Origin: Microthyrium microscopicum | Taxonomy: Eukaryota | NCBI GenBank assembly: GCA_010405405.1 | Contig: MU004231.1 | Coordinates: forward strand, 1,104,153-1,168,152 | Direction: 5' to 3' | Length of the DNA: 64,000 nucleotides | Shown here: positions 3,360 through 53,713 of the stretch, in pieces | Layout: each line of letters starts with the position of its first letter | How positions within the stretch are numbered: position 1 is the first letter of the stretch | Program-made: the position numbers and the translations under genes | The notes under the pieces: model-generated | Seen by the model: the letters and a program-made list of their open reading frames with translations, nothing else | Told to the model about the DNA's origin: nothing | The model's database searches: none

Positions 3360-5026
3360 ATGCCAAAACAACGAAACTCCACAGTTAGACACTCTGGGCC
3401 TTCACTCAGCCCATACCGAAGACCCAGCATACAAGCTCGCACTACAGACGATGCTGAGTTTTCAGAACAGCTCACTGCATTGCAGCAACTGGCAAGTAAA
3501 TTGGCTGCCAAGCGAAGGATCGTCATCATCAGCGGAGCTGGCACATCCACGAATGCAGGCAGTAAGTCACAGGAAGTCGATGGTTCGTGCTCTAACCAGA
3601 TTCCGTGACAGTTCCTTGCTTTAAGAGTCTCTCGAGGACTAAGATGGCCAGCCGAAACGTATTCGATCTTTCAGCGTATTCTTCGCTGGAATCTGCCAAC
3701 TTATTACACGAGAGTGAGCTGCAGATACTCGAATCAGCGTCCAGGAATGAGCCTCAGCCTTTTGAGCTTTTCATGGAACAGTTGGCTCAATCAGGCCGCC
3801 TTCACCGACATTATACTCAGAACATTGATTGCCGCACGAGCAAGCTCCCCGCACTGAGTCAAAGAACGATTAATCTCCATGGTCGACTGGATAGATTAAG
3901 GTGTCACGTATATTCTCAGCACACAGTTTCAGTTCAGCAGCAGTCACTGCGGGAGTTGCTGGGTGCCCGATGCCCGGTATGCGACGAGAAGAATGAAGAA
4001 CGGTCCCGAGAAGGGAAGAGACTTCACAGCGTGGGATTTCTTCGACCCGACGTGTTACTATACAATGAGAGTGACGGAGCCGATCCTCAGATCATGAAGG
4101 CGTTTGAAGAGGATCTACGTGGAAATATCGATGCGGTCATCATTGTTGGAACGACGCTCCACATTCCTCTTTTGGAAGACTTCACAACCAAAGTCTGCCG
4201 AAGAATGAAACCTTCCACGGGAAAGACGCATTTACCTAGGACTGAAGGAATGGTTTTATGGATCAGCACCGAGAAACCAAAGGTAAGAGCAAAACTAAGA
4301 GATCTCATCGACTCAAAGTTCCTCCAAGACTGCGACGAATTCGCAGTTCAAATCTCTCCATGGCTTGACAACCTAAAAGGTAAGATGTCCCTCAGCAAAA
4401 AATAATCATTACTAAGTATGCACAGATATCTCATCTAGTGTCATGGCTTCGACAGAACCCGATGTTGGGATTGAAAGAGAACTTCAGTCCCCACGGAGCA
4501 GCACATTTGATCCTCCTAAACCTATCAGATCTATCGTCGATCTTACGGTTGACCAAGAACACTGCTGCCTATGTCCAAATGTCTTGGGCGAAGGAGGAGA
4601 CCTTGAAAGCAGAGCCTTTGTCTTCAATGACTGCGGATGTGTAAGCGAACGACGAAATCAACTTTGGCTGTGCTGATCAATAACTAGGTCCTTTGCGGCG
4701 AATGTGTTGGAAATGACAGCTCCATCGAGCTCACATGCCCAAAATGTGACCATTTTGGCAGCCTTTATTCCCACCCGCAAATCGTCCGTCAAGACTTTGG
4801 GCTCATGTGCCCTATTTGTTTCGAATCAGCAGGAACGGATACGGCGATTGAGCGCGTTTGCACGCCTTGCGGTAAGTGAGTATTCAAAAGCTTAGGAAGA
4901 ACCCGGCTTAATCAAAAAAAGGCCATGCATTCTGTCGTGCATGCATCACGGCGTATCTGGAAAACGGACAAAATGACACGTCTTCGAAATGTCCGACCTG
5001 CAAGGCTAAAATTCCCCGCGATGTAG
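3360..5026 (+). CDS. Sirtuin (Hst3/Hst4-like) fused to a SIM-like motif and two RING fingers; 5 exons
   Basis: Sir2 motifs GAGTSTNAGIPCF, YTQNID, LHG, LRPDVLLYNE, IVGTTL. GT-AG introns 3562-3611, 4380-4425, 4641-4688 and 4872-4921 join in frame to CCLC..CGCVLCGEC..CPKC and CPIC..CGHAFCRAC..CPTC. Stop TAG at 5024-5026. Confidence 0.75.
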
Positions 5027-6747: not shown

Positions 6748-7887
6748 ATGGATAGCAACATGGAAGGAACTGGGGGTCAACAGAACCCTCCTCCAGCTAA
6801 TGGTCAACAGGACCCTCCTCCAGCTAATGGCCAACAGAACCCTCCTCCTGCTAATGGTCAGGATCCTCCTCCATCGAAGGGCCAACAAGAACCCCCTGAG
6901 GCCGGCGGCCAGGGGAGTCCAGATGAGCCAGTTCCAAGCACGGAAGGTGGAGAACAAGGTGGAAACTTTTTTCCAGGCCTCAATGGTTCCACAAAGTCTG
7001 GCTCCGGTTCAGGCCCATCTAAATCCACGCCGAAAGACAACGACCCAGATAGCGAAGAATACGGACCACCGATAGTCTTTATACCTGTGCCGAAAACGAC
7101 CGAAGGCGATGGCACAGTTGGATGGACCAGTCTCTGGGGGAAACTGTATCTCAATCGGTACGGAAAGAAAAGCCATGCAACATACCGAGTTGAGAAAGAC
7201 TGCGTTGATGGCTACGACAAGCCAGACGAGGAGAATATTAACAGCCTCCTGAACCGGCGCGGACATCTGAAAGTAAATGAAAACAGCACAGAGCGTAAAT
7301 ACACGAGAAGACACATCAATCGCATTCTCGCTGTTGCATGGCAAGGAAAGATTGCTACCACCGCTGACGAGGAATTTGATCGCTCAGAAGACCTAGATCT
7401 GATCAATCCGGCTATCAAACCAGATAAGACCAAGTATCCTCGCACCTATGTTTACGTCCGTTGGCTAATTGACGGAGAATTCGTTAAGACATGGGAGCCA
7501 AGGACCGAGCTTCAGGTTCGATACGGAGCGAAACTCGCGAACGATATCATCTTTACCGCTGCCAAGGAACAAGAAGAGAGATACAGCGATGCAAAGACTG
7601 GTAAGCGCAGGGCATCAAGCAGATCTCCTTCTGTCGGATTGGCAGACGGCGCGGTTCGCGAAGAACGCGAGAAGTCATTGGAGGCAGAGCGCAAGCGCGG
7701 CACCAGGGAAACGACTCCTAGAACAGCAGCCAAGGTTAGCGATCTGGTTATGAAGCTTATGGACGAGTTCAAGGAAATGCATCTTGCCTTGAAGGGCGTA
7801 GAGATGTACGAAGAACTTGATACTGAAGAGAAGGCCGAATTCTTTGACGAATGGAAGGAGTACAAGGCTGCCAGGATCAAGGCGTAA
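6748..7887 (+). CDS. Hypothetical protein with N-terminal GQQ(N/D)PPPAN repeats and a chromo-like C-terminal domain; paralog of 35789
   Basis: Long ORF with a TATA at 6671. Contains INRILAVAW...YVYVRW...TWEP and shares LDLINP and other blocks with the 35789 ORF. Confidence 0.7.
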   Translation: MDSNMEGTGGQQNPPPANGQQDPPPANGQQNPPPANGQDPPPSKGQQEPPEAGGQGSPDEPVPSTEGGEQGGNFFPGLNGSTKSGSGSGPSKSTPKDNDPDSEEYGPPIVFIPVPKTTEGDGTVGWTSLWGKLYLNRYGKKSHATYRVEKDCVDGYDKPDEENINSLLNRRGHLKVNENSTERKYTRRHINRILAVAWQGKIATTADEEFDRSEDLDLINPAIKPDKTKYPRTYVYVRWLIDGEFVKTWEPRTELQVRYGAKLANDIIFTAAKEQEERYSDAKTGKRRASSRSPSVGLADGAVREEREKSLEAERKRGTRETTPRTAAKVSDLVMKLMDEFKEMHLALKGVEMYEELDTEEKAEFFDEWKEYKAARIKA

Positions 7888-7974
7888 TCCAGCACGGGAT
7901 CAGCAGTTTCTCTATGGTTGTAACGATAACAATTTTTCCACTTCTTCATCCTTTGCTTTCATCATTTATTCAGG

Positions 7975-8431
7975 TAACATGGGTGCCGGCGTGGCGAGCC
8001 GCTGTTAGAGAATAGGATAAAAGGGATAATTCTTCTATCTAGAGTTCTAAGACTACCTTATATAATGCTTATGTACATGGGTAGTGTTAGAGACTGTTGG
8101 AACCACTCAGGTTTCCGTATATATACGGGATTTGGTCATAAAGAGTTCGTAGCTAATGATAGACTGGTATTCTGGTTTTCTGGTTGATGATGCTTTATTC
8201 TTGTCTAAGTACAGATGGTAGATTCCTGAGGACTAGCCTGCCAAGGATATCACGTGATATAACTAGAGATCCAGACAGAGACTGATACTATCACCAACAT
8301 TGATTGTATCAGTCCGAGATATCACAGCCACGTGATTGTGTCAGTCTAAGACATCAGTCACGTGACTATACATGGACAGAGGTGTGGGTGTCCCCATTTA
8401 ACAGCGGCTCGCCACGCCGGCACCCATGTTA
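7975..8431. mobile_element. MITE-like element: perfect 33-bp terminal inverted repeats (including flanking TA) around an LTR-like interior
   Basis: 7975-8007 taacatgggtgccggcgtggcgagccgctgtta is the exact reverse complement of 8399-8431. Confidence 0.75.
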
Positions 8432-9498: not shown

Positions 9499-10367
9499 CT
9501 ATCCCGGTGCGGCGGGCCGCCCGGTACAACGGACCACTTTATAGTTGAAAGTACTACCTGTCTCTAGTTCGCATATATATAAGGTTTCCCTTCATCAGAC
9601 CCTATTCTATAGCTGTTTCTCTAGAGTAAGAGATGGCGCAGCTTGAAAAGTTCTAGAACATCTCTATGGCCGACTCCGTCGTACATTTTTAAATTGTCCC
9701 CCCGAGTTTTCAGCCAAGGGATCACAAGTGCCTTTCACCTCGAACGCAGAATTATGTACTATTCAAATAGAATGGACTTATTGCACCTAAAAGGGTTAAG
9801 GTCTATCCACATATAACGAGCCAACTCATTCAACGGGCCGGATTCTAAATCCGGAGCAGCTTCTAACCTCCCTTCGAAAACATGTCGAGGGGTTATTGCT
9901 CGATAAATACTATACAAAATTTACTCTCTAACTTATAAGCCATTGATTTGAAACAAAGATCGATTGTATGGTGGCGTACCTGCTAATCGTTTTAATGGTG
10001 CCATTCATTTCATCTCATCGATACATAGTATATTAGAGTTACCGAGAGGAGCTGTTAATGTCGGTAGATATTGATTCTGATTCCAGCTTGCCTGCAGCAG
10101 GCTGAAGGTACCGGGTGGCGCGTACTAGTGACACGCCACTCCTTAGTAATTACCCTTATATCCTATGTACACATATACACTCTCTTGTACCTTTCCTTAG
10201 ACAGAACAGATAACACAATAGACACTAGAGGCTCCTTTTAAATAAGGCGAGCTTTGTGTCAACGTAGTTATCAAAAGTACACTTGGTAATTACTATTTAC
10301 TAATAGTTAAAGAGGATAGAAATCAGACTCAAAAAACTTGTAATACTAAGGGTATGTTAGTATAATA

Positions 10368-11160
10368 CTATCTTTTAATACCATTAATGTTGACTGTAGC
10401 CCTAATTCCTACCATGTCCTCCCTTATACCCTCCATGGCTACCTTGATTCCCGCCGTGTCCTCCCTCATACCCTCTATGGCTACCTTGATTCCCGCCGTG
10501 TCCTCCCTTATACCCTCCATAGCTACCTTGATTCCTATCGTGTCCTCCCTTATATCCTCCATGGCCACCTTAATTCCCGCCGTGTCCTCCCTCATACCCT
10601 CCATGGCTACCTTAATTCCCACCAAGTCCTCCCTTATACCCTCCATAGCTACCTTGATTCCTACCATGTCCTCCCTTATACCCTCTATGGCTACCTCGAT
10701 TCCCACCGTGTCCTTCCTCGTAACCGCCGTAGCCACCCTAATTCCCACCGTGTCCTCCCTTATACTCTCTATGGCCACCTTGATTCCCGCCGTGTCCTCC
10801 CTTGTAACTGCCGTAGCCACCCTGATTCTTACCGTATCCTTCCTTATACCCTCCATGGCTACCTTGATTCCCGCCGTGTCCTCCCTCGTAACCGCCGTAG
10901 CCACCTCGATTCCCACCGTGTCCTCCACCTTGCCCGCCTTCGTATCCGCCGTAACCACCTTGATTTAAGCCATACCCTCCTTGCGCCCCAGCATGCACGC
11001 TTTCATTATATTTCGGCTGGTTTGCAAAATCTTGAGGATGCTTCTGCCCGGTTGCAGCGTCGGTAATCTTGTGCAGGAGTCCAGATGATGATTGTTGCGA
11101 ACCTGTAGACTGCTTCTGCCCAGACATCTGGTCAGCGATTTTGCCAAGAAGGCTAGACAT
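10368..11160 (-). pseudogene. Gly/His/Tyr-rich repeat protein (GGYGGYEGGHGGNQ-type repeats), RIP-damaged
   Basis: ATG at 11160. Tandem 21/42-nt repeats continue past an in-frame TAG at 10738-10740 (expected CAG). Repeat variants are dominated by G>A/C>T changes. Confidence 0.7.
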
Positions 11161-11166
11161 CTTGAG

Positions 11167-11241
11167 GGAGTTATTAAGTGGGAGTTATTGAGTGGGAGTT
11201 ATTAAGTAGGAGTTATTGAGTGGCAGTTATCGAGTGGGAGT
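11167..11241. repeat. ~5 tandem copies of 14-bp GAGTTATT(A/G)AGTGG
   Basis: Directly visible immediately upstream of the 11160 ATG. Confidence 0.7.
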
Positions 11242-11444
11242 AATGGAATGACTGCGGACGACAATGTCAGTGATTGGAAATGGAGGTGTTTTATCCGTTA
11301 TTAGGAGCTGAGGCTGAGCAAGCTGCTGTGCTACAATCGAATCGTTAATATTTGCTTACGTTATATGAATACGTTGTCATTCTTCATCCCTTGTCTCAAC
11401 GCTTCTCGCAAATTAAACTTCTTAACTCTTGCTCATTATTAACT

Positions 11445-16690: not shown

Positions 16691-17709
16691 CTTTTATTGA
16701 GGTGCAACACCAAATTTGGACCTATTCTCTCTTATTGGACCAGCGCAAGAACTCCGCAGACGAATTAAAGCCCAAGTGGTTGATGCGACGCCAGCATTTG
16801 GGCTGACGAGTGTTGTATATGTTCTTCCGTGAATAGATCTCACAATTACGCTAGCATTCTAATTCCACAAATTTACTTTTCCAGCTACGCTGGTTGGTAT
16901 TCTAACTCCCACAGGCTCACCTTAATCAATTAAAAAAGTATAAAAATGAAAACTCACCTATTACCGGCATTCCTACCCGCTCCTCGTCTCCTCTTGAACC
17001 CTCTTGATGTATTTCCCTTCCGCCTCTTCTTGAAGAATCGTCGTCAGATCGGCCGTACCACTGTACACTATAGCACGTCGACCAAAAGGCACCCGGTCCG
17101 CCTTTCCCGATTGGATGTAAATTGAGATGCTGAGAATCTAATCCAATTTAGAAGTTGTATGAAAACGGAAGTGAGGGGTAACTGACATAACCTTCATCTA
17201 AAGTGTCGTCAGCTAGGGCGTTGTTAAGTAAAGACTTCACTACAATCCTAATGTCTATTCACAGTTAGCCTGAATTTATGGCCATTACACCCGAAAACAG
17301 AAATCACAATTTACAATATCGCTGTTGTTGTTAACAGCGTCATATAGAACACAATACGCGGCCGCATAGGAATCTAGTGGGAGGCAATATCACAAGCAGG
17401 AAACAGCTTTATCGGACAAATAAGCCTCAGAGAGATGAAGTAGTACAGATAGACGAAGCTGAACAGTGGAGGGAGACTGTAGGGTATACGGACGACACAA
17501 CACAAGTGTGCAGAGCACGAGAGAGACACACAGTATCAGATTACAGACAAAATCATACCACAGACAACATACAAGAAGTAACTAGGATTAAAGAACATGT
17601 ACACAGATAGATAGATAACGCAGAGCTGAGGGGGCAGCTGGTCATACTTCTGGTATGGCGAAGTGGGGCTTAATCAAATTAAGCGTCGGCTGCTTGGTAA
17701 CGCTCTGTA

Positions 17710-19515
17710 ACGTAGTAGACAGGGTTTCCGACAGACCCCCTTTCCGACACCCTACATTAGATAATTGTAGATTTACTTAAACCACTATAATAATGCAATT
17801 AAATGTTATTTCGCTTTGAAATTTAAATAGTGAATTAAGAAGACCTTAAAAATTACGTTTCTGCCTTTTTAAATAGCAAATATACCTTAGAAGTTAAAGC
17901 AGTAAAGGCTTTTAGGGTTCCTAGATCTACCTTAAAGAGATAATTAAAAGGCACTAAAAGTCATAAATCTAGCTATTCCTCTTATTAGAAATTGTTAATT
18001 GTAGAAAAGTATAAAGTTGTCCTTTAGTGTAAGAGTAAGGAATTAGCTAGTTATCCTCCTACCTATATAAGAATTAAAGACTTTGCCTAAGAGATTTTAT
18101 AATAGTAAATTCTAGAGGCCTTTTTAGGCACAAATTAGCATAAATTATTCAAAAGATAAAATCTAGATATTATTTCTATTATAGCAAGACGTATTAATAA
18201 ATAGCGAGTTAATAGAACTAATTTCAAAGCTATTATAGACTTCTTTTAACAATTTGAAAGTGCTATTTCTTTCCTTAAGGTTAAACTAGCTAATATATAT
18301 AATATAAACAAGATAGGAATACGTTTAGGTATTACTAGCAAAGAAGTAGTTATTATATCTTAATAGATAGCAGAAACAACGAAATCTAGAAACTTATTTA
18401 TCTTAGAGAATGGTAGTAAAGAGAATACTTTAATTCTTAAAACTATATTAGCTACTAGTTAAACTATACCATTTTTAGCTATCTATAAAGGCTAAAACAT
18501 TTAAGATTCTTAGTTCCCTCCTAGATTACGTAAAGAGCTTAAATCTAAAGGCTTTTCCTTTGCTATAATAACTAATAGCTAGACGTTAAATTAGTTAGGC
18601 AAACAATAGCTTAAAACGACCTTTTTACCCTTTATAAAACTATTAGATTCTTTAGAATGGAGGATTTTAATCTATAATAACTATAGATTATATATTACTT
18701 TAGAATTTCGCTATCTTTACCTTAAAAATAAGGTCTAAATCGTCTATTTACCTCTATATTTATTATATCAAACTTAGCCTTTAGATATTAGCATTTTTAG
18801 ACTATTAAAATGACATTTTATAGCTACACTTAATAGATCTTCTCTTAAGTCTTTATTTACTCCTATTTAGAAGAGAATCTTTATATAAATATATATAATT
18901 ACTTATTAAAAAGCTTTCTATAAAGCAAATGGCGTTTCTGCTTTTAAAGTAACTAGAATTTAGCCTATAAATTGATATAAAGTACTTTAGTATATTCTAC
19001 TAACTCCTAAAAATTCTTAGTAGTTAATTTCTATGCAATCTATACCTATTTCTCCTTCTTTATCTTCTTTGCCCTTTATTAAAAGGCTTTAGTTTACGCT
19101 AAGAACGAAGAGATTAGTTATATATAGTATTTTAAGAGAAATAAGCTAAATCTCTTTTTACAATTTAGCTTTATAATAATATATAGTTATGCTTTAAAAT
19201 TAAGTAACTATGCTTATAGTACCTAAAGGATTAAGCATAAGGAAGAAGAGGAATTATAATAAAGAATTAAAGGATATAAATTTAATTACATTAAAATATG
19301 CTTTAAATAAGCTTATGCAAGCTTCTAAAGCTATTTTAGAGGCTTAGAAACTAATTAAAAAGAGGAAATGTAGCGTAAAGATTAAGCTTAATTTATCTAT
19401 TTAATTTATTTAAATATCTTATATTTTAGTTGAGATATTTTGTAGTGATGATCTAGTAATTATCTATTTTGGGGGTGTCGGAAAGGGGGTCTGTCGGAAA
19501 CCCTGTCCACTACGT
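17710..19515 (+). mobile_element. pogo/Fot1-type (Tc1/mariner superfamily) DNA transposon, RIP-degraded
   Basis: 43-bp TIRs starting ACGT (17710-17752 and 19473-19515, 1 mismatch), TA duplication on both sides, ~1.8 kb, very AT/TpA-rich stop-riddled interior. Confidence 0.9.
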
Positions 19516-19748
19516 TATCCGGGCATGGATGCGTGAAAAGCGGCCAACATCGAGTAGGAATTAATCAATCAATCAATCAACCTCGCCACTCATTTATTGT
19601 AATCCAAGTGAGATACTCTGTACTGTCTTGCGCTAAACTTTGCCCGCCAATTCTGAACTAATATGCGTCTATGGACGTGAGCCAGGAAGATCATCTCGAG
19701 CTAGTATTTGGCCCAGTCCAGACGCTCCTTGTTGTCACCTACTGCAAT

Positions 19749-30064: not shown

Positions 30065-33000
30065 GGGGGATTCTAAACGACCCCTTCTTCTAGCTAATCT
30101 CCCCCTAACTTCCAGCTATTCTCCCCCTAGTAGATCTGAAGCCAAAGGATGTCGGGTTAGGGCTTGGTAGTAGCGTTTACTTTAGCTATATTTAGTTTAG
30201 TTCCATAATAATTTCGTCATATTACATTACTAGCGTTAAGTTTCGCGTAATCTACCCCTTAAGTCCTTTAAATCTTCTAAGTCTTTAATATTCACTAAAA
30301 TAACTCTCTACTAACACATAAATTCTACCACATAAATTCTATAATACTACTACATTTACACCAAATAATGGCTCTACTACCAGACCTACTAGATAATACG
30401 TACGTAATAGCTAAAGAAGCAATTTTTATAATTAATAATTATGGCATTTTGCATAGTTACACCATCATTACTAAGCGCTCAAAGCCTAACCCTAAAGACG
30501 TAATTAAATATATCTACTACCTTACCTACGATCATAGCTACTTTAATATCTTAACATCTACTAGCGCGCAGAATTCCTTAACTAAACGCGTTAGTTATCT
30601 ATAGAAATTAAAGCTTAAAAAGGATAATACTACTAAGCGATAGCATATATATTTTAAAGATAAAGATTATAACTATTCTAGCTCTTAACATGTTACTATA
30701 CATCCTATTTATTACCATTAAGAGATAAAGGATAAGAATATTACTTAACAAGCTTAAGATATATTATTTAGTAGCATTACTATTTAACGTATTATAGGCA
30801 CCCTCGCCGTAAAGGATCTAGCCAATAATTTAGTCTCAAAAGATATTATTAACTCACTTCAAAAGGAATAATTACTACGTCTAAATAGTTATACTCTTCT
30901 TTAAGCTATATTAGACTCCTTTCTCGCCAATCCTAATACCTAGAATGTTAAGGTTCTTACGAATAATGATAATAATCTTAAAATACTATTCTTTACCACT
31001 ACGAAGTAGATTATAATATTTTAATTATATCTAGACATCTTACTTTTAGACTATACTTACTATACTAATCATTATAATATGCTATTACTTTATATTGCTA
31101 GCAAGATACCAATAAATTACTACTTCTCTATAACGTTTATATTTATAATTAATAAGAAGTAATAGCAGTATTCTAACGCTTTAAAAACCTTTAACGATTA
31201 TATTCAATTTAATAACTTAAAGATGCTAAATATTATCATTATAAATAAATATATAGCATTAAAGAACGTTATTAGCGAGCGTTTCCTAGATGTCCCTTAG
31301 ATTCTTTGCCTCTTTTACGTTAATAAGGCTATTAAATTCTATATTAAGGCAATATTTAGTATTATTAATATACCCTCTAGATCTAAAGCATTTAATAATG
31401 TAGACAAATAGTAAAAGCTTACTATGTTAATGTAGCAGAATGTCGTTAAAGCTACTACTATTAAAAACCACGAGATTATATAGACTATACTTACAAAATA
31501 GTTCAAAGAACATAAGGATTTTATATCCTATCTTCGTAATAATTAGCTTAACTATAAAGAAGAACTTTATAAGGCCTTCATTAAGCGTACTTACTACTTT
31601 ACTACTATCTTATAATTACCTTTAGAAGGTCTTTACAACTTTATTAAATAATGGCTTAGTTCTTTAAAGCTAGATCTTAATTAAGTAGTAGCATATTATA
31701 AGAACGCTACCTATACCTTTCTTAATTATATCCACAAAGCTATTAGTTTAGATTCAATTTAAGTATAATCAAATACTAGCACTTTATTAGTTCTAATCCT
31801 CCCTTTACGACTTTATAAAGCTATTGCTAATTATGCTATTCTAAAGATTATAAAGCAATTCTACAAAGTAAAAGATATAATACTAAATACTCTACGCTAT
31901 ACTAGCTTCTTTAAAGCTATTTATGGATTACCTTGTTCTTATACTATTTAAGCGCAATTAGCGTTCATACTATAGTAGATAGTAGGTAGAGAAGACATTA
32001 ATTTATATTAGTATTATGAACGACCTCTTAATAACGCTTATAATAGCGCGTAGCCAATTACTAGCTTCCTTCTAGTACTTACACTACTAGTTTAAGCTTA
32101 AATTCTTCCTTCTATGGTTATTTATAGTAGTAGACGTTCTTAAGCTAATATTAATATAACTTTAACTCGTTAAGATCCCTTATATTAGGAGATTTTTCCT
32201 ACTTTAGTAGCTTTAACTATACTAGCATCTTTAATAGGTCCTCTAAAACGTAAATAAGGACGTCCTTATAAGAATACGACTTTAGTAATATTAAATACTA
32301 CAAATTTAGCTATGGTATCTTTATTAGCGCTTATAATAATTAAGGAGGGAGATAACAAGGATTTTAAGGACATTAACGCAATTTTTAAAGCTCTACTAGA
32401 TCCTATTTAGACTATTAACTTAGCTAAAGATACTAATCAGGCTAAAGACACTAATTAAGCTAAAGCTCTATAGCGTAAGAAGCGTGTTATTAAACCTTTA
32501 GCGCGCGTCTATAAGAATATTACGGCTAATAAAGATCTCAAGATAGCAGAATTACGCCGCTAAATTATAGCTCTTTAGGCCGCTTTAGCTTAACTAATAC
32601 TATAACGTAGAGGGCGCAAAGGGCGTAGATCTTATAGAGGATGAGGAGGATGAGCTCGTGGCAAGTAATTGTAGTATTATTATACCAAAACAGGGGTTAG
32701 GATAGAATGCGGGATACTTAATTTATTACTATACTAAAAATAGGGTCAAGATATATTACGAAATAATTGTTTTATGCTTCAAAAATGATAAAGAGATGTT
32801 ATATAGTTGGGATTCTATAGATCTTATAGTTTCACGCCTAAAATTGTAGAATTCTTAGGATTATAGCTTCATAGCTGCTAGCGTAGTTTTAGTGCTTTAG
32901 TTAATAAAATATTAGATCTTTAGACACCAAAATTATGCTCTAGTACCACTATAATACTATGAATTTATTACGGACTTCCTATTTAGGAATAGCTCCTTCG

Positions 33001-33078
33001 GCTTTGGATCTACTAGGGGGAGAATAGCTGGAAGTTAGGGGGAGATTAGCTGGAAGAAGGGGTCGTTTAGAATCCCCC
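30065..33078 (+). mobile_element. Mutator-like (MULE) DNA transposon, RIP-degraded
   Basis: ~85-bp TIRs (gggggattctaaacgacccc...), 9-bp TSD CTATTGGAA at 30056-30064 and 33079-33087, 3.0 kb AT-rich interior with a ruined ORF. Confidence 0.9.
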
Positions 33079-46381: not shown

Positions 46382-49300
46382 CTATGCGAACCTTCTCGGC
46401 CTTCTAACTCTTCGACGGCCCTCGCATGGCTGGTGAAATTCCTCTATCAGATCCTTACACCCTTCAAGGTTTTGAATAGGCTCCCATGTGTTCGCTGAAC
46501 TTGGCCATCCGTGCCACTTGACTCTGTAGAGCGCACTGCCCCCAACCATGTCATGACCAACGATAGCTTCCACCTTGTACTTATCTCTCGTGTTTGACGC
46601 TCTGTCAATACCCCATGATGCCATGTGAGTATTGTCAGTCTCAGCAGGTGGGCTATCTCCAGGGCCGGTTGCAGAATCACCTTGAAGTTATTAGTAGTGA
46701 AGGAGCTAGAATATCATGCGACTTACGTTCAGAAGGAACTATGGCGGCGTCATTGACCTGCTGCCTCGCCGGGTTGTTTGAGGCGTGAAGCACTGAGACA
46801 CTTCGCTCACGAAGCGTCACTCGGTGACATGCATCCACAACATCCGGCACGGAACTAGGAACAAGCTCTTGATAGTCACTGTGGACATGAGTCCAGTGGT
46901 CCACATCGTCATCTCCTGTGAGGTCTATGAATGTGAAGTTCTCGATCGCTAATGGTGGGTCCATTGGGGAGCAACACTGGCGACCAAGCTGATAGTGCAT
47001 ATGCGCTGTACTGGCCAAGGCGTACATGCTCTCTTCCATGTCCATAGTGTCTTTAAAATTGTTAGGATTAGAAGTAAGGTGGAGTTTGAGAGACAAACCT
47101 TGCTGTTGCCATGACGAGGCATCGTCAGACTGGTGCACTGAGCCACCCTCTAGAGACTCAATGGGGACAAAGTCGTCATCGTTCACATACAGCTCCTTGT
47201 AAGAGGCGCTGTCAAGACCGCTTCGGATGTCGTCGCATATAGATGATAGCGGCGTTTGACTACCACTGCTGCGTCTTCCACAGCTACTGCTAGCCGTGCT
47301 AATGGCAAGGGATGGTGTGCGGGAGGATGACTTGCTTGCAAACTTGAAAGCGGTGGCGATTTCCACAGATTCGATGCTGGCGTTGACGAATGTGTATTCC
47401 AATAGCGCTGTCTGCTCTTTTCCTGTCTCAGACTTGATATCCGCCTTGCTCTGGCGGGTGAGTTGTGTTTTCTTCAGATGACTGAAGGATCGTCTATCGG
47501 TTTGATTATTCTTTCTCTTCCGAGTTCTCAGTTTCTTGAGTGAGTGGATACCGTGGGCGTCTTGGAGATGAAACTGGAGTTCCAGGGTGGAATTAAAGGG
47601 AACAGAACATTGTTGTGTTCGAAATTCGCATTTTACCGGCTGCTCTCCCAGAGCATCGATGTGTCTCTGAATGTGGGTCTGCCACTTCGGTTTACTCTTG
47701 AATTGGTACATCCGTTTGCTGGCCGGCAGTCTTGGGTCTACAAGACAGTCATAGCAGAAACCTGGCATCGCAAGAACTCCGTTAAAGACCAGTGGATCGA
47801 GGAAGACGGGGAAACTCTCCAAATCATTGACATGATCTTGGCAGTGGAGTTCCCACGACTCTGTATCGAAGATCCAATCGCTGCAAAGGAAACAAAGTTC
47901 CGCGAAGCCACGATCTTGTTGTTGTGTCTCTTGGAAGCATTTGTATATGTGACTCCAATCGTAAGTTTCGGGACACATTTCTTGAAGGTTCGGCTTTTGC
48001 TCCTGGAAGTCGTCAGTTGCTGTGTTGTCATTGGACCTGCGACAGCATCTGTTAGGTTCCAAGCCTGGACGAAAGTCTACCTCTCTCTCTTTCTCGCACA
48101 GTTCCGTCATGTCTTGGATAACACGAAGGCCGGCGGGACTTCGTAAGTCAGCAACTTCGAACATGTCCTCGGCAAGGCGTTGTCTCGCCGGCATCATGAA
48201 ACTGCAGCGATTGAATATTTCGCGATGATAACCTTGAGGGTCTCCAGGTTGGTATGGCTGTTTCTTCTGCCACTTTCGCAGTTCTCTCTTCATCAGTCTG
48301 GCCTTCTGCTTACGCAGCTTGGTTTCTTCCTCCCGTTGCTGTTCGGTATCCATATCAGGTTCAAGCTTCACAGCAGCCATCTTTTCCTCGAGGTCAAGCC
48401 AGTCTTGGCGATTCTCAATCTCATATTGTTTGGCTGCTGGAAGGCTGTGCCATAGATTCGGGTTTCGAGGCAGAGTTAGCTCTCTGAAGGCGTCGTTCAC
48501 TACATCTCGTCGCTCGTCACCGAGGAACGTGGCCTGGCCATCCACGCCGGCATTTCTGGGCTGGTAGCTTGAATGGAATGTCTCTCTGTCATCTTGCCCG
48601 GCTTGTCCCATCCGCGCATCAGGCGAATAATGCTTGTCTTCGCCACTGTTAGCATGTTTACAACAACTCTCAAGCTTGCGTGCTTACCAGTCAAAAAGAG
48701 GCCTTCTGCCCTCCAGTCGTGAATCGTCGGGGGAACTAGGAAACCAGCTCGGATGCCGCATTCCCGATGTCTGCTGCCAAACGCACTGGCGGTTTCAATC
48801 CTTTTTGCGCCCTTTGTGGATTGATTCAGGAACACGGGTGCATCAAGTAGATCCTCCTCCCAGTGGATCTGGAATGCACGGTGTTCTTGAGTTGGGGTAA
48901 CTGCAAAGAGCTCTTGTAACGTCTTGTAGTCCCTAAAGGCACGACGTCTGAGGAATATAGCCAAGTATGGCAGAAGAGGGTTCTGATAAAGAGGGCGAGG
49001 ATACCGCCCTTCTGCGAATGCATGCTGCGGCCTGTGAGAGGTTTAGTCAATATCCATATTCGAATGTTCACATGACATTACCTTCTGTGAGGAGTGTTGG
49101 TCATGTTCTTCGCGTCCTTCGTAAGCTGCATAGCAAGTTCGGGTCTGTCATCCTCATTCAAAAACACTATTACCATGATATCCTGTGATTCTTTCAGTCA
49201 GCGGAGCCTCGCGCACGATGGTCTTTTTCATCGACGAACCTTGTAGCGCAGGCCTCTTCCGGAACCCCTTCTGGCTGATGATTCAATGTACTCTCCGATT

Positions 49301-49968
49301 CGAGCGGAAGAATACACAATCGCCAGGGTCAGGGCCCAGTCTAGTACTCTGGTTCCTGGCGAAGAGTATTCATACCAGTCCACCTTCCACAGCTGTCTGG
49401 CAAAATGGTACAGATGATTCCTGTTTGCGTACCGTCGTGCTCGTTTTCTCTCAGGCATCTTCAGCTCATCCTTCAAAGGGCCGTATATGAACTAAGTCTG
49501 GCGGTTAGCTACGGTGAATTAAGAGCTAGCAGTAGTCAAACATACCTGCGTAACCGACCTCTGTATGTGCTCCGATATTGGGTTGTCCTCATAGGCTCGT
49601 AGCCAGGCTCCGGTGAAGTTGTTCCAGTAGTTTCGAACACTTTCGACGCATGGAGGTATCCAGCCGTCCTCGTCCTCGTCTGTGTCGCTGTCGGGGTCAT
49701 CATATCCCCTCTGTCCGTCCATGCCGAGTGCCACATGCCTTATGAAGTCTTTCATCCATTTCAAGCTGTGGACTGAAACTGTCAGATTTAACTTCAAGTT
49801 GTCTTCCACAAACTGGTCCCAGAGAGCCAATTGTCTCCGATGATTTCGCTTTGTCCCATCTTCAAGGCCCTTCAGCACTGGCTTGTCGTTAACGATCCCT
49901 GTATCCTTTTGAGCGCCCCTCGCCCTCGCTCGAATGAAATGTGCTTCGGGATTCTTCCCTCTCGCCAT
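46382..49968 (-). CDS. Starship captain: DUF3435-type tyrosine recombinase with C2H2-like zinc fingers and a C-terminal chromodomain; 6 exons
   Basis: YSSARIGEYIES (catalytic R), KDAKNM, TIHDWRAEGL (HxxR) and RMGQAGQ..FHSSY (Tyr nucleophile); C-x2-C..H fingers. Introns ~49490-49545, 49183-49239, 49032-49081, 48638-48687 and 46681-46726 are all in frame. Chromodomain YKVEAIVGH..YRVKWHGW..NTWEP..NL. Confidence 0.88.
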
Positions 49969-50412
49969 TCTCTGGCCGGAGAAGAGATGTAATGATATTG
50001 AATAAGCTGCAAGCAAAGATGAATGGTGTAAGAATGTTCGATTGAACTTATGAAAGAGAATGAAGAGACACAGAGAATGAGAAGACCGGTTTGATATTCA
50101 AAACCCGCATCAACTGAACATGCTAGAGGGAAGGGGAGACTGGATTTCCTTGCTCAACATGAAATGAGTGACACGGAGAGGACGCCCTTATACATATGAT
50201 CCAACCACCATCATCCCATCCAGACAGCTATGCCCAAGGGGCCTCATCCTATTGCATCAGCAAGCCGCCGGCGGTGAATCACCTCCAGCCGCTCTATGAA
50301 GGGGATCCCGAAACTGGGACCCCCGACAGGGTCGCGTCGACTTGACATTTTTCTCATCGCATACTGCGTGGCTGCTTAGATGACGAGGGGCCCAGAACCG
50401 GGACCGCGAGTG

Positions 50413-50566
50413 TGAGACTGAGCGACAGCATGAGCAGCCTGAGGCAGCCAGATTCGAGCGTGAGCGACCATGATTGAGTTTGAGGTGGCCGTGAGCAAGC
50501 GTGAGTTAAGGCGGTGCAATCGTGAGCATAGTGAGCCGAGGTTGAGCCGAATAAGATTTTGCTGAG
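50413..50566. repeat. Array of 13 TGAG tetramers, mostly spaced in ~10-bp multiples
   Basis: TGAG starts at 50413, 50419, 50431, 50440, 50461, 50475, 50481, 50492, 50502, 50523, 50532, 50543 and 50563. Confidence 0.7.
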
Positions 50567-51026
50567 TCAACGTGGCTGTATCGACGACCCGAATTGGGAC
50601 GTGGGTGCGGGCACTTTGTCCCCGGTAATAGCAGCATATGTTTTCACTCACATTTTTCTGCTCATGGACACCGGAAAGAGCTACGGATTTTGAAAAGACT
50701 GATGAACAAGGGATCAAAACTGACAGCAACATCCGCACAATATCATTCCTCATCAAGGCTTTCAGACGAAGTAGGTGCTCTCTGATGATCATCAACTAAC
50801 AGACCAATGTAGTACAAGATTGGATAGTTTCTATACAGGGCTGTTGCATTGGAAGTTTGACTACTGAATGTAGTAAAGAACATAGCAGCTGTTCGAAAGA
50901 GCTGGTGGTCCCTGTCTCTGAACCATCCGCTCAGAGTATATAATCATCAGCTATCGTCGGTAGCAGAGATTTCAGTCAGCGGCAAAGATCTCAGTCGATG
51001 GCAGATCAAATTCATTCTCTTGAACC

Positions 51027-53246
51027 TTAAGAATGCGCATGACGAATGGCTACTCGCATGTGCCCTCTACCTTTTCGGTTTGCTCTGAAATAGAATGGTA
51101 TGAAGATGAGTTCCTGAGGTACTTTGTCATGAGTCGTGAGAAGCGTAGAGCGAAGAATAGCTGGGGAGGTCTGAATGGCTCTCAAATTAATACGACTGGC
51201 CGCGTTGGAGACTCGATAACCAATGAAAGATTCTCCGGTCTCTGAATCACTTATCTGGATCTCCTCCGGCTTCCAGTCCTTGTCATTCAAGACCAAGCTC
51301 TGATCAGTCAGTCAATACTAGCTGTCACATAACGATGTCACGGGGCAGATTACTTGCCTTGAAGTGATCATCAGTCCATGGATTATCCACATCCTCAATA
51401 CAATATACCAGTGGTCCACGAGCAAGAGTCACAGTGTCTTGATTTGTGTACGGATGTGGTCGAATCAAGCGATGGACCATTGGCAAATGCACAGTGAATT
51501 TTGCCACATCGCCCCCTGACTGAACAGGAATAGTAAAATAGCCAGACTTGGGTCTTTGCTCAGTCTTGAGATCGTCAGCCTGCTGAGCTGAAGTTAGCGC
51601 GCCTCAGATCTCATTCACCGATATGAAATTTTACCTCGTATTTCCATTCGGAAACGAAATCTGGAATTCTCAGGACAACTTTTGTTTCGATGTCTGCCTG
51701 TCCAATCAACTCAAATTTGAGCTCCCCTCTCCAAGGATATGTAGACTCCAACTTGAGTTTGATGTCTCTCCCGTCTGAGAGCCGGCATGTTAAGGTGCCA
51801 GATGCGTACATGTGAACCTTGATAAGAACGGATTTGGATAACACATCTTCTTCATAGTCCCACAAGTAGCCCCCGATCGAGCCAAGCAAGCGCGTAACAT
51901 TAGGAGGGCAACAAGCTACTTGAAACCAGTCAGCTCTTTCAGACAGATCTGTATCCGAGGATGCAAGCTGGTTTGTATACGAAAACTTGGTGCCATCGGC
52001 TGACATGCCGCCTAGTACGGTATTGTAGAAACAAAGCTCCATGATGTCGCCATATTTTCCGTTAAGATCAAGCTATTCAAAATTAGCATAGTTTCCGGTT
52101 TTGAATCGATGACTTTACTTGAAGTAGTCTATGAGCCAGCATCATCACGCCTATCGACGCGCAAGTTTCCCCGTAACATCCACCTTCATCTGTGCCATGC
52201 GGTAAGAGATAGTCTGGTCCAAAGCCTTCCCATTGCTTCACTGATCCTATGCCTCCAGTCATGTACATCTTCTTGTCCACCATGTTATCCCAAAGGCGTA
52301 GTAGTGAGACTTTGTAGTCTGCCATGTCTTTACTTTGCCGAACCAAGTCAGACGCAGCAGTGAGCAAGTACATGGCTCGGACACTATGTCCTTCAATTGT
52401 AGGTTGCTCAAGAATTGGCAGATGTGCTTGTTGATATCGGTACCTTGATTCTGTTGGGTAATATGTTGGCCATTCATATTGTCGTTCCCCTCTTTCCTCT
52501 CGTTCAACGTCGTAATAGTGTCTTCCACTTTGACCTGTGGGATTTCCTCGCTCTTGAATAAAGTACTTTGCGAGTTGTCGGTGCTTCTCGTCTCTGGTGA
52601 CTGCGTATAGTCGCAGCAGAGCAAACTCGATCTCTGGATGGCCAGGAAACCCATGCCTTTGATGATCTCCTGGTCCAAAAGTCTCGTGCAAAAGATCAAC
52701 ATACTTTAAAATTGGTTCTAAAAGGTCGTTATCGTTGTAGAGCTCATGGTATGCTACTGCAGCCTCAATCAAATGGCCAGCATTGTATCTTTATCAAGAA
52801 GTTAGCCCTCTGTCAAAAAGCCTGTCGACTACGACTGACAGCTCATGCATATCCCTCAAATTCGTGAAACGACCCTCCGGATCCACCACCGTGAAGTGAA
52901 TATTGAGGTAACCATCCGGCTGGCTAGCAGATCTAATCATCTGGACCAACTCTTTTATGGCGCCCTCAATCTCAGGATCTTTACTCTCGTGTAGGAAGTA
53001 GCAAGCACCCTCGATCCACTTAGCTATGTCGCTGTCCCAAAATAGATGCTTTGGTACTGGCCACGTGTCTGGTGGTTCGTTATAGATCGGGTGCCATTTG
53101 AGTTTGAAGGCATCGTAGCGACCAGTACTTTTTAGAGCTTCGAGCTGGTACTTGAGTGTTGACTTGCGTACGACTTCTCGTTTCCTACCAATGAAGCATG
53201 TTGGATCGAGGGCAGTATGAATGAATGTGGACTGAGGATACGCCAT
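51027..53246 (-). CDS. Glycoside hydrolase family 127 (non-reducing end beta-L-arabinofuranosidase-like), multi-exon
   Basis: FWDSDIAKWIEGA, HEL, PGHPEIE, EGHSVRAMY, YGETCASIG, ACCPPN and RGPLVYCIE motifs. Confidence 0.9.
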
Positions 53247-53713
53247 TTTGAAAGTTCGCTCACTGCTTGATCATGCGTTTGATTCGCCCCTGGTTTTGTG
53301 GCTGTCAAAAGTGGTCGCTCTTTGGACTCCTAAGATAACCTGATCAGCTTTCTATGACGTGCTATTTCTCTAAGCTCTTTCGGATATCGAGTAAGAGTCG
53401 TCAATACTATGCATCGAGAAGGAGAGTAAAGGCTTGGAAAAGCTAGAAGTTATGCAACCCCACAGAAGCCCGTGGCTCTACTGGGATCGTTCAAACATTT
53501 GGTGCTATGATCAATTAATAGTCAATACTTCTTTGTACTGTTCCCAGCAGCGAGAGGCTGCAATCGTATTTAGGGCAGCAAAGCGAGGCCCAAACCTCTT
53601 ATATTGCACTACAAGGTTCCTAATTCGGGCGAACCGAAATATCGGATATTAATTCTACACAACAACGTATAAGTCTACAGCAAACTCTAGTCCATTCAAG
53701 TCTTCGAATAAGT

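Follow-up and report, generated by a model that had tools for sequence, protein, structure and literature searches.

A stretch of 64,000 nucleotides from Microthyrium microscopicum (assembly GCA_010405405.1, contig MU004231.1, positions 1,104,153 to 1,168,152 of the forward strand), here called the window, carries near one end of a predicted Starship, a eukaryotic giant transposon, an array of 13 short direct repeats that follow one another in step with the turns of the DNA helix. The array lies upstream of the captain, the predicted tyrosine recombinase gene of the element. All its units are on one strand, and in related elements it is conserved and located just inside the terminus. An earlier note on this DNA, made from the letters alone, had described the array and proposed that it is either a subterminal platform on which captain multimers bind during synapsis or a nucleosome-length positioning signal. 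Our preferred reading, which we hold tentatively and with less than even confidence, is that the array is a cis-acting, one-faced docking strip which would shape the 5' arm of the element for synapsis and feed back on the expression of the captain.

The phased array in the window and in related elements

Between positions 50413 and 50566 (154 bp) TGAG occurs 13 times on the plus strand, starting at 50413, 50419, 50431, 50440, 50461, 50475, 50481, 50492, 50502, 50523, 50532, 50543 and 50563, and its complement CTCA does not occur. The window as a whole contains 265 TGAG and 266 CTCA, or 0.64 per 154 bp. The count of 13 in the earlier note holds. The five 154-bp segments richest in TGAG all start within 50405-50413, and CTCA reaches a maximum of 5 per 154 bp across the whole window. 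Dinucleotide-preserving shuffles of the 154 bp contained a mean of 3.95 and a maximum of 10 TGAG, with 13 or more in none of 5000; when any 4-mer was counted in the same shuffles the maximum was 12, and again 13 was reached in none of 5000. Since no second TGAG or CTCA cluster comparable to the array is found elsewhere in the 64-kb window, the array is specific to the element end and not a general promoter word.

The periodogram of the 13 TGAG positions peaks at 10.2 bp, with a power of 6.98 of a possible 13. A common phase of 0.59-0.78 is shared by 11 of the 13 sites, the outliers being 50413 and 50475. Random placements matched the power of the array in 1 of 20,000 cases within the band of 9.5-11.5 bp and in 0.8% over 5-25 bp. 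The helical phasing proposed in the earlier note is thereby borne out by a periodicity test, and the ten positions on which it was based, with gaps of 9-11 or 20-21 bp, were all recovered. The note had also denied that the array is a simple tandem repeat. This agrees with Tandem Repeats Finder, which reports just 2.5 copies of a 9-bp unit (50426-50449, score 34).

Read on the captain (minus) strand the unit is gCTCAnnCT, and all 13 units have the same orientation. As direct repeats that follow each other at one helical turn, they are all presented on a single face of the DNA. No unit has a mismatch in the 4-base core, and each other position is constant in at most 10 of 13 (a preceding G in 7 units, C at +6 in 9 and T at +7 in 10), so the units are not alike over their whole length as those of a minisatellite would be. 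The word TGAGTCA of the outermost unit is a heptamer of the AP-1/Gcn4 type. The array is situated 445-598 bp upstream of the captain start codon and begins 4 bp beyond a palindromic GGGnCC..GGnCCC word, in line with its earlier description as starting right after the last palindromic motif.

For comparison, the large exon of the captain was aligned with 23 homologues and used for a scan of metagenome contigs, which yielded 58 loci with captains 32-82% identical to that of the window (all read with the captain on the plus strand). In many of these loci the segment richest in CTCA, located with no positional prior, is found approximately 1850-2030 bp before the captain match; the array of the window lies 1730-1883 bp before the same alignment point. 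Of the 37 loci with more than 2200 bp of upstream DNA, 17 are richest in CTCA (per 100 bp, over the whole locus) in the homologous zone of 500 bp. Start codons of the relatives were located by means of exon 1 of the window, and the upstream regions formed 15 non-redundant groups. At least three CTCA are present at -520 to -370 from the start codon in 12 of the 15 groups, with gaps of 10, 11, 20, 21 or 33 bp. The arrays of the relatives consist of 4-10 units, span about 49-140 bp and have gaps of about 10.5, 21 and 31 bp. In L011, with a captain 33% identical to that of the window, all 10 units are in phase (power 9.37 of 10 at 10.4 bp), and L002 (38% identity) has 9 units. The L019 group carries eight units with a GCTC core, mostly GCTCC, at gaps mostly of 11, 12, 19 and 22 bp, also of 29 and 14 bp.

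The spacing is also visible when no motif is specified. A 4-mer autocorrelation over 14 relatives rises at lags of 10-11 (88, 120), 21-22 (60, 67), 31-33 (87, 50, 44) and 42 (60), the background being about 20. In control stretches of these loci, coding or far upstream, a ladder of 10.5 bp like this one is missing, and the highest values at any single lag are 43 and 36. At the DNA level, the best blastn match between the 4.6-kb captain region of the window and L011 is the array itself (50429-50565, 75% identity over 140 bp, E 4e-17), which outranks every coding segment including the chromodomain and the Cys/His region. The array is again the top match in L002 and one of two matches in L020; L012, L029 and L019 gave no blastn match to the captain region of the window. 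In the deletion derivative L040/L041/L044 the array is shortened to 3 units. As all three loci have one flank, they are uninformative about transposition with a short array.

The position of the array relative to the element end is best seen in a multicopy family of relatives (L029-like), whose copies are 76-99% identical and whose alignment starts at the same base, AGGTAGGGTGGCC. The copies align over approximately 3.4-3.9 kb through the captain, beyond which the cargo differs. This family provides 20 termini with 12 distinct 60-bp flanks, two of them related, which leaves 11 sites. Its first array unit is located 65 bp inside the terminus. The earlier note had made its proposal depend on the array being present in related elements and lying inside the true boundary; both hold, the former at the homologous place in the relatives and the latter in this family. 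The multicopy family and the window share one order of features: terminus, GGTTAGTCA(GC) box, array, palindromic GGGnCC..GGnCCC word, TGTCAAnTTTAnACG box, second palindromic word and start codon.

In the window the GGTTAGTCA(GC) box of the relatives has diverged to GGGTCGTCGA. An ATTAC is present 25-26 nt outside the CCCAAT box. Because this distance is the same as in L002, the 5' terminus of the window element is predicted near 50625, 59 bp outside the array. The host-type genes that follow on this side of the captain bracket the boundary to 50567-51027. The array would hence have the captain start (ATG at 49968, minus strand) on one side and the element end on the other, as had been supposed from the sequence. 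TTAC is given as the direct-repeat core of Hephaestus-family Starships in the accessible text of two reports (PMC11162782, PMC10104507), and a TTAC-type junction is plausible for this element. At most of the 11 sites of the L029 type the flank ends with TAC or TAT, followed by two variable bases and then AGGTAGGG; these flank ends recall the TTAC core of the Hephaestus-family repeats.

Most lineages have a conserved word of the Yap1/AP-1 type immediately outside the array. This word reads TTAGTCA in general, TTACTAA in L002 and TGAGTCA in the window, and is located about 40-50 bp inside the terminus in loci of the L029 type, at 6050-6075 in L002 and at 50563-50569 in the window. TTAGTCA and TTACTAA are listed as Yap1 sites in the part of the source available (PMC6545440). 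The word could tie captain expression to stress signalling.

No counterpart of the array was found elsewhere. Neither a second array nor an inverted repeat was detected in the window by a repeat scan and by blastn-short of 50381-50700 against the window, and the reverse complement of the terminus of the L029-like family is absent from all loci. Within 10 kb downstream the loci contain no phased TGAG arrays; TGAG-rich spots in 5 loci are unphased chance clusters. The 3' end of the element is probably located outside the window.

Possible functions of the array

We infer that a protein binds to the array, and likewise what the binder may be and what binding would bring about. According to our preferred reading of a docking strip, a small DNA-binding module would bind head-to-tail along the strip and bend or stiffen the arm. 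This module may be an accessory domain of the captain, e.g. its conserved beta-beta-alpha region with Cys/His residues, or a small factor encoded by the element or the host. Occupancy of the strip would place the terminal crossover site for synapsis, for excision to a circle and for integration. It would probably also feed back on captain expression, as the strip lies within the few hundred bp that serve as captain promoter as well. For Hephaestus, the text available of a recent preprint describes movement via a circle joined at TT//AC, and a stretch of 451 bp between terminus and captain which acts as the promoter of the linear form (bioRxiv 10.64898/2026.09.21.753150). By this precedent the array-bearing arm would be recombination arm and promoter at the same time.

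Several points weigh against the docking strip. The array is absent from two of the 15 groups, L015 and L028 (the 5' end of L028 is cut off by AT-rich DNA). Gaps within 1.5 bp of a multiple of 10.5 number 31 of 37 in 7 lineages against 10.6 expected, in zones which were picked by eye. As the arrays are homologous, this count reflects retention and not independent origin. The phase in the relatives could accordingly be inherited in part rather than selected, and slippage by whole units would keep it without selection. The repetitive structure raises blastn scores, so the matches of the array to its relatives are supportive, not decisive. In an alignment of three lineages identical columns are only modestly enriched in the cores (23 of 52 against 44 of 149 elsewhere, p = 0.04). 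The multicopy family cannot separate core from spacer, since the whole region is conserved there, cores and spacers alike. Finally, a protein of about 1100 amino acids cannot sit every 10.5 bp; if the captain binds, only small domains of it could contact the units.

An extended form of the docking strip, possible in our view yet doubtful, is that this clade assembles a lambda-like 'intasome'. On the circular intermediate, the crossover site, a conserved box of the basic leucine zipper (bZIP) or bending type and the one-turn ladder would then together constitute the 5' arm of an attP-like site. The ladder would be read by Cys/His fingers of the captain, which would make it a heterobivalent eukaryotic tyrosine recombinase, or by an excisionase-like factor, and occupancy would couple the direction of recombination to captain expression.

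The array might instead serve the captain promoter alone, as an upstream activating or operator region bound by a host factor such as a bZIP protein and with no role in recombination, which we consider somewhat unlikely. It is located 445-598 bp upstream of the start codon, directly outside palindromic words of promoter type, and this distance is conserved in the relatives too. A Yap1-type word stands beside most of the relatives' arrays (sites as listed in PMC6545440, seen in part), and the outermost unit of the window is itself TGAGTCA. The core has been kept across captains that are now about 33-46% identical, as would be expected if a conserved host factor read it. On the other side, a full bZIP heptamer (TGA(C/G)TCA, TTAGTCA or TTACTAA) is found in 1 of the 13 units, so that the array is not a cluster of such sites, and the relatives have one bZIP-type word, outside the array. 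We know of no bZIP dimers on ladders of half-sites spaced by one turn, which counts against such a promoter element, as does the uniqueness of the cluster within the 64 kb. Moreover, the upstream DNA of linear Hephaestus is a weak promoter that needs DNA from the 3' end for full output, according to the part of the preprint available (bioRxiv 10.64898/2026.09.21.753150).

It is improbable that the array is a functionless, decaying minisatellite of 10-11 bp whose phase has been kept by slippage of whole units. The number of units does vary from 4 to 13 between lineages, three lattice positions in the window lack the core (at the gaps of 20-21 bp), and Tandem Repeats Finder picks up part of the array. 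Against this stands the fixed position of the array while captains diverged to about 33% identity. No DNA is better conserved than the array between the window and L011 or L002, its core is perfect in 13 units whose other positions agree in at most 10, every unit has the same orientation, and the lineage with a changed core, the L019 group, retains the spacing.

Very improbable is a DNA-shape or nucleosome-positioning signal, about one nucleosome long, that sets the chromatin at the element end: the span of 154 bp is near 147 bp and the period of 10.2 bp matches rotational positioning, but the relatives' arrays of 49-140 bp and 4-10 units do not conserve a length of about 147 bp, and the periodic word is G/C-rich and strand-specific, unlike the alternation of AA/TT and GC in known positioning sequences. 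Of the interpretation offered in the earlier note, the subterminal placement is supported and the nucleosome-length alternative is not.

Captain gene, neighbourhood and other features of the window

The features discussed are collected in Table 1. Judged by its homologues, the gene next to the array encodes a tyrosine recombinase of the captain type, in which a conserved Cys/His region follows the catalytic domain and a chromodomain stands at the C terminus. The captain fragment itself matches DUF3435 at 4.3e-5 (23.1 bits), below the cut-off of 25.8. Its large exon has 47 homologues, several of them full-length fungal proteins with DUF3435 and Chromo. Two of these, P0018 and P0010, pass the Pfam cut-offs for both domains, and exon 1 and the large exon of the window align with them, exon 1 corresponding to their N-termini. 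The chromodomain open reading frame (ORF) is probably joined to the captain by an intron, since the full-length homologues carry both domains in one protein.

Table 1. Features at the captain end of the element, with positions in the window.
Feature	Position	Strand	Basis
Captain gene	46382..49968	-	ORFs; Pfam Chromo and DUF3435 matches; full-length homologues P0018 and P0010
Chromodomain ORF directly past the stop of the captain large exon	46382-46624	-	Pfam Chromo, 2.3e-18
Exon-like ORFs of the captain	49519-49968, 49228-49491, 49078-49197, 48500-49042, 46677-48683	-	ORF list
Second copy of the palindromic GGGnCC..GGnCCC word	50304-50326		Sequence
Conserved box TGTCAAGTCGACGCG between the two palindromic words	50333..50347	-	Relatives have TGTCAACTTTAGACG-like words there
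Palindromic GGGnCC..GGnCCC word directly inside the array	50388..50409		Same word after the arrays of L002, L006, L012, L019 and L020
Array, 13 units, period about 10.2-10.5 bp	50413..50566	-	Counts, phase, shuffles, homologous arrays in relatives
Outermost unit, full TGAGTCA word, the sole such among the 13 units	50563..50569		Read from sequence
Stretch outside the array aligned to the 'CCCA..GGTTAGTCA' box of relatives; reads CCCAATTCGGGTCGTCGA, diverged	50581..50598	-	Alignment to relatives
TTAC, predicted 5' terminus/crossover, 59 bp outside the array	50625..50628	-	Inference from homology
GH127 beta-L-arabinofuranosidase gene, last domain ending near 51027	51027..53270	-	Pfam scan

The structure of the captain exon was modelled with AlphaFold (668 amino acids; mean predicted local distance difference test, pLDDT, 46.9). 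Three beta-beta-alpha units are modelled on invariant Cys/His columns, with pLDDT of 57-94. Foldseek of the model against PDB returned no match at E <= 0.001, the top weak rows being C2H2 arrays at E of about 1, and Pfam gave no zinc-finger family. A wide search with VIA-align matched only a helical hairpin (residues 80-147, Z of about 7), which is uninformative. In view of the low pLDDT and the lack of a Foldseek match at this threshold, the model gives a mere hint that the Cys/His region may be zinc-finger-like.

Reading inward from this end, the DUF3435 captain is the first gene, as expected of a Starship. The genes to its left serve metal handling and comprise a PCA1-type P-type ATPase, cation-efflux proteins and a Na/Ca exchanger. 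To its right, beyond GH127, follow a sugar transporter, the splicing factor Prp9/SF3a60 and a DEAD-box helicase, which are host-type genes. This arrangement puts the captain at the right-hand end of a cargo block. Captains with a chromodomain are reported for the Enterprise family (PMC11162782, text seen in part). The chromodomain thus points to Enterprise; the TTAC-like junction and the metal cargo recall Hephaestus.

Some further observations concern the termini of the relatives. At about 4980-5000 of L028, two 5' termini of this family, altered by repeat-induced point mutation (RIP), meet head to head in a perfectly palindromic junction (CTACCCTACCT joined to AGGTAGGGTA); it looks as though the end of one element had been the precise insertion point of a second. 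In L040/L041/L044 approximately 330 bp of a 12-bp minisatellite (GGTAGGGAGTTT-like, 7851-8190) lie 150 bp outside a terminus that starts with AGGTAGGGTGG. Hairpin-type insertions resembling miniature inverted-repeat transposable elements (MITE-like), bounded by CTCAGACGTG and CACGTCTGAG, occur at about 1700-1890 in L008 and upstream in L047/L048; in some copies such insertions split the terminal 65 bp between terminus and array. The terminal 50 bp of the relatives looked 5S-like, and insertion into 5S rDNA was considered and dropped: Rfam 5S was not found in 5 loci (E <= 1), in window positions 49900-51600 (E <= 10) or in the whole window (gathering score). The window contains no tRNA genes.

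Elsewhere in the window, a second periodic array is seen at 270-550. It consists of 14 TCTCC within 278-527, spaced by 15-17 bp, a period that is not a multiple of 3; most copies are in short palindromes (CTCTCC NN GGAGAG). Close by on its left are the leftmost palindromic promoter word (45-62) and a TATAAAAAA. Two AT-rich blocks with a GC content of 25-32% (17708-19517 and 30065-33078) have inverted repeats at their borders, which are 45 nt long with 98% complementarity and 85 nt long with 95%. Both blocks are probably small transposons that were mutated by RIP and sit within the cargo. A 42-bp tandem repeat of at least 12 copies with a strong skew of C over G occupies 10316-11029 and is followed by a 14-bp repeat of 5-6 copies at 11166-11249. 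Near the left edge, ORFs resembling a nucleoside 2-deoxyribosyltransferase and a SIR2-family protein are present at 976-1644 and 3596-4402. Their pairing is known from immune-type gene sets.

Comparison with known systems

As in published Starships, the captain of the window element is the first gene and starts within 2 kb of the 5' boundary. In the accessible text of three Starship papers, the end features described are direct repeats and occasional terminal inverted repeats, and the role of the end repeats is stated as not demonstrated (PMC11162782, PMC10104507, PMC12506042). Starships are said to lack conserved structural features (PMC11162782, in part). The text available of the same papers and of the Hephaestus preprint (bioRxiv 10.64898/2026.09.21.753150) does not mention a subterminal phased array, and literature searches on Starship ends brought up none; figures or supplements of these papers could show end alignments. 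The words 'binding site' and 'repeats' are likewise absent from the available text of the experimental Starship papers that were searched for them. A published mini-Starship uses 3.8 kb and 1.9 kb of end DNA (PMC10104507, text seen in part). The array, about 50-150 bp long and next to the terminus, is a small and concrete target for mini-Starship and 'starmid' assays. As a sequence signature it could also help to locate 5' boundaries in this clade when a genome offers no empty site.

Among transposons, the array is similar to the hexamers of Ac/Ds and the 12-bp TnpA motifs of En/Spm, where many transposase-binding motifs occupy the first 200 bp or so inside the terminal repeat. These systems differ from the array in that they use DDE transposases and carry motifs in both orientations and at both ends, with no strict phasing by one turn. 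In tyrosine-recombinase elements, the arm-type sites of lambda Int (P'1-P'3) and Tn916 Int have a layout similar to that of the array, with repeats apart from the core, in the arm that leads from the core to the integrase gene. Arm-type sites are read by a second DNA-binding domain of the recombinase, which is N-terminal there. Unlike in these heterobivalent integrases, the Cys/His region of the captain is C-terminal to the catalytic domain, and a role in arm binding is putative.

The layout of the array is that of the site arrays of excisionases, or recombination directionality factors (RDFs), which would be its closest analogues; its units would lie 60-200 bp from the crossover end. In bacterial tyrosine-recombinase elements, filaments of the excisionase together with arm-type sites of the integrase position the crossover. 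RDF arrays such as those of lambda Xis and phage 186 Apl resemble the array in being short direct repeats in one orientation, spaced by one turn and within about 100-200 bp of the crossover, and the array has just this combination of direct repeats, single orientation and one-turn spacing. Phage RDF arrays have two to a handful of units. The array differs from them in belonging to a eukaryotic giant transposon and in having 4-13 units, and a Pfam scan of 47 ORFs of the window gave no candidate for a small cognate DNA-binding protein of the RDF kind. According to the accessible part of a published account (PMC7498355), RDF sites are repeated directly at intervals of one helix turn, and Apl is excisionase and transcription regulator in one. 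Apl regulates promoters (same source, in part), as the array may do for the captain promoter. If the intasome reading is true, the units would be the first example of defined accessory cis-sites in a eukaryotic transposon of the tyrosine-recombinase kind. Should the array act as bacterial arm and excisionase sites do, Starships would resemble integrative elements not only in the enzyme but also in the way their recombination site is built.
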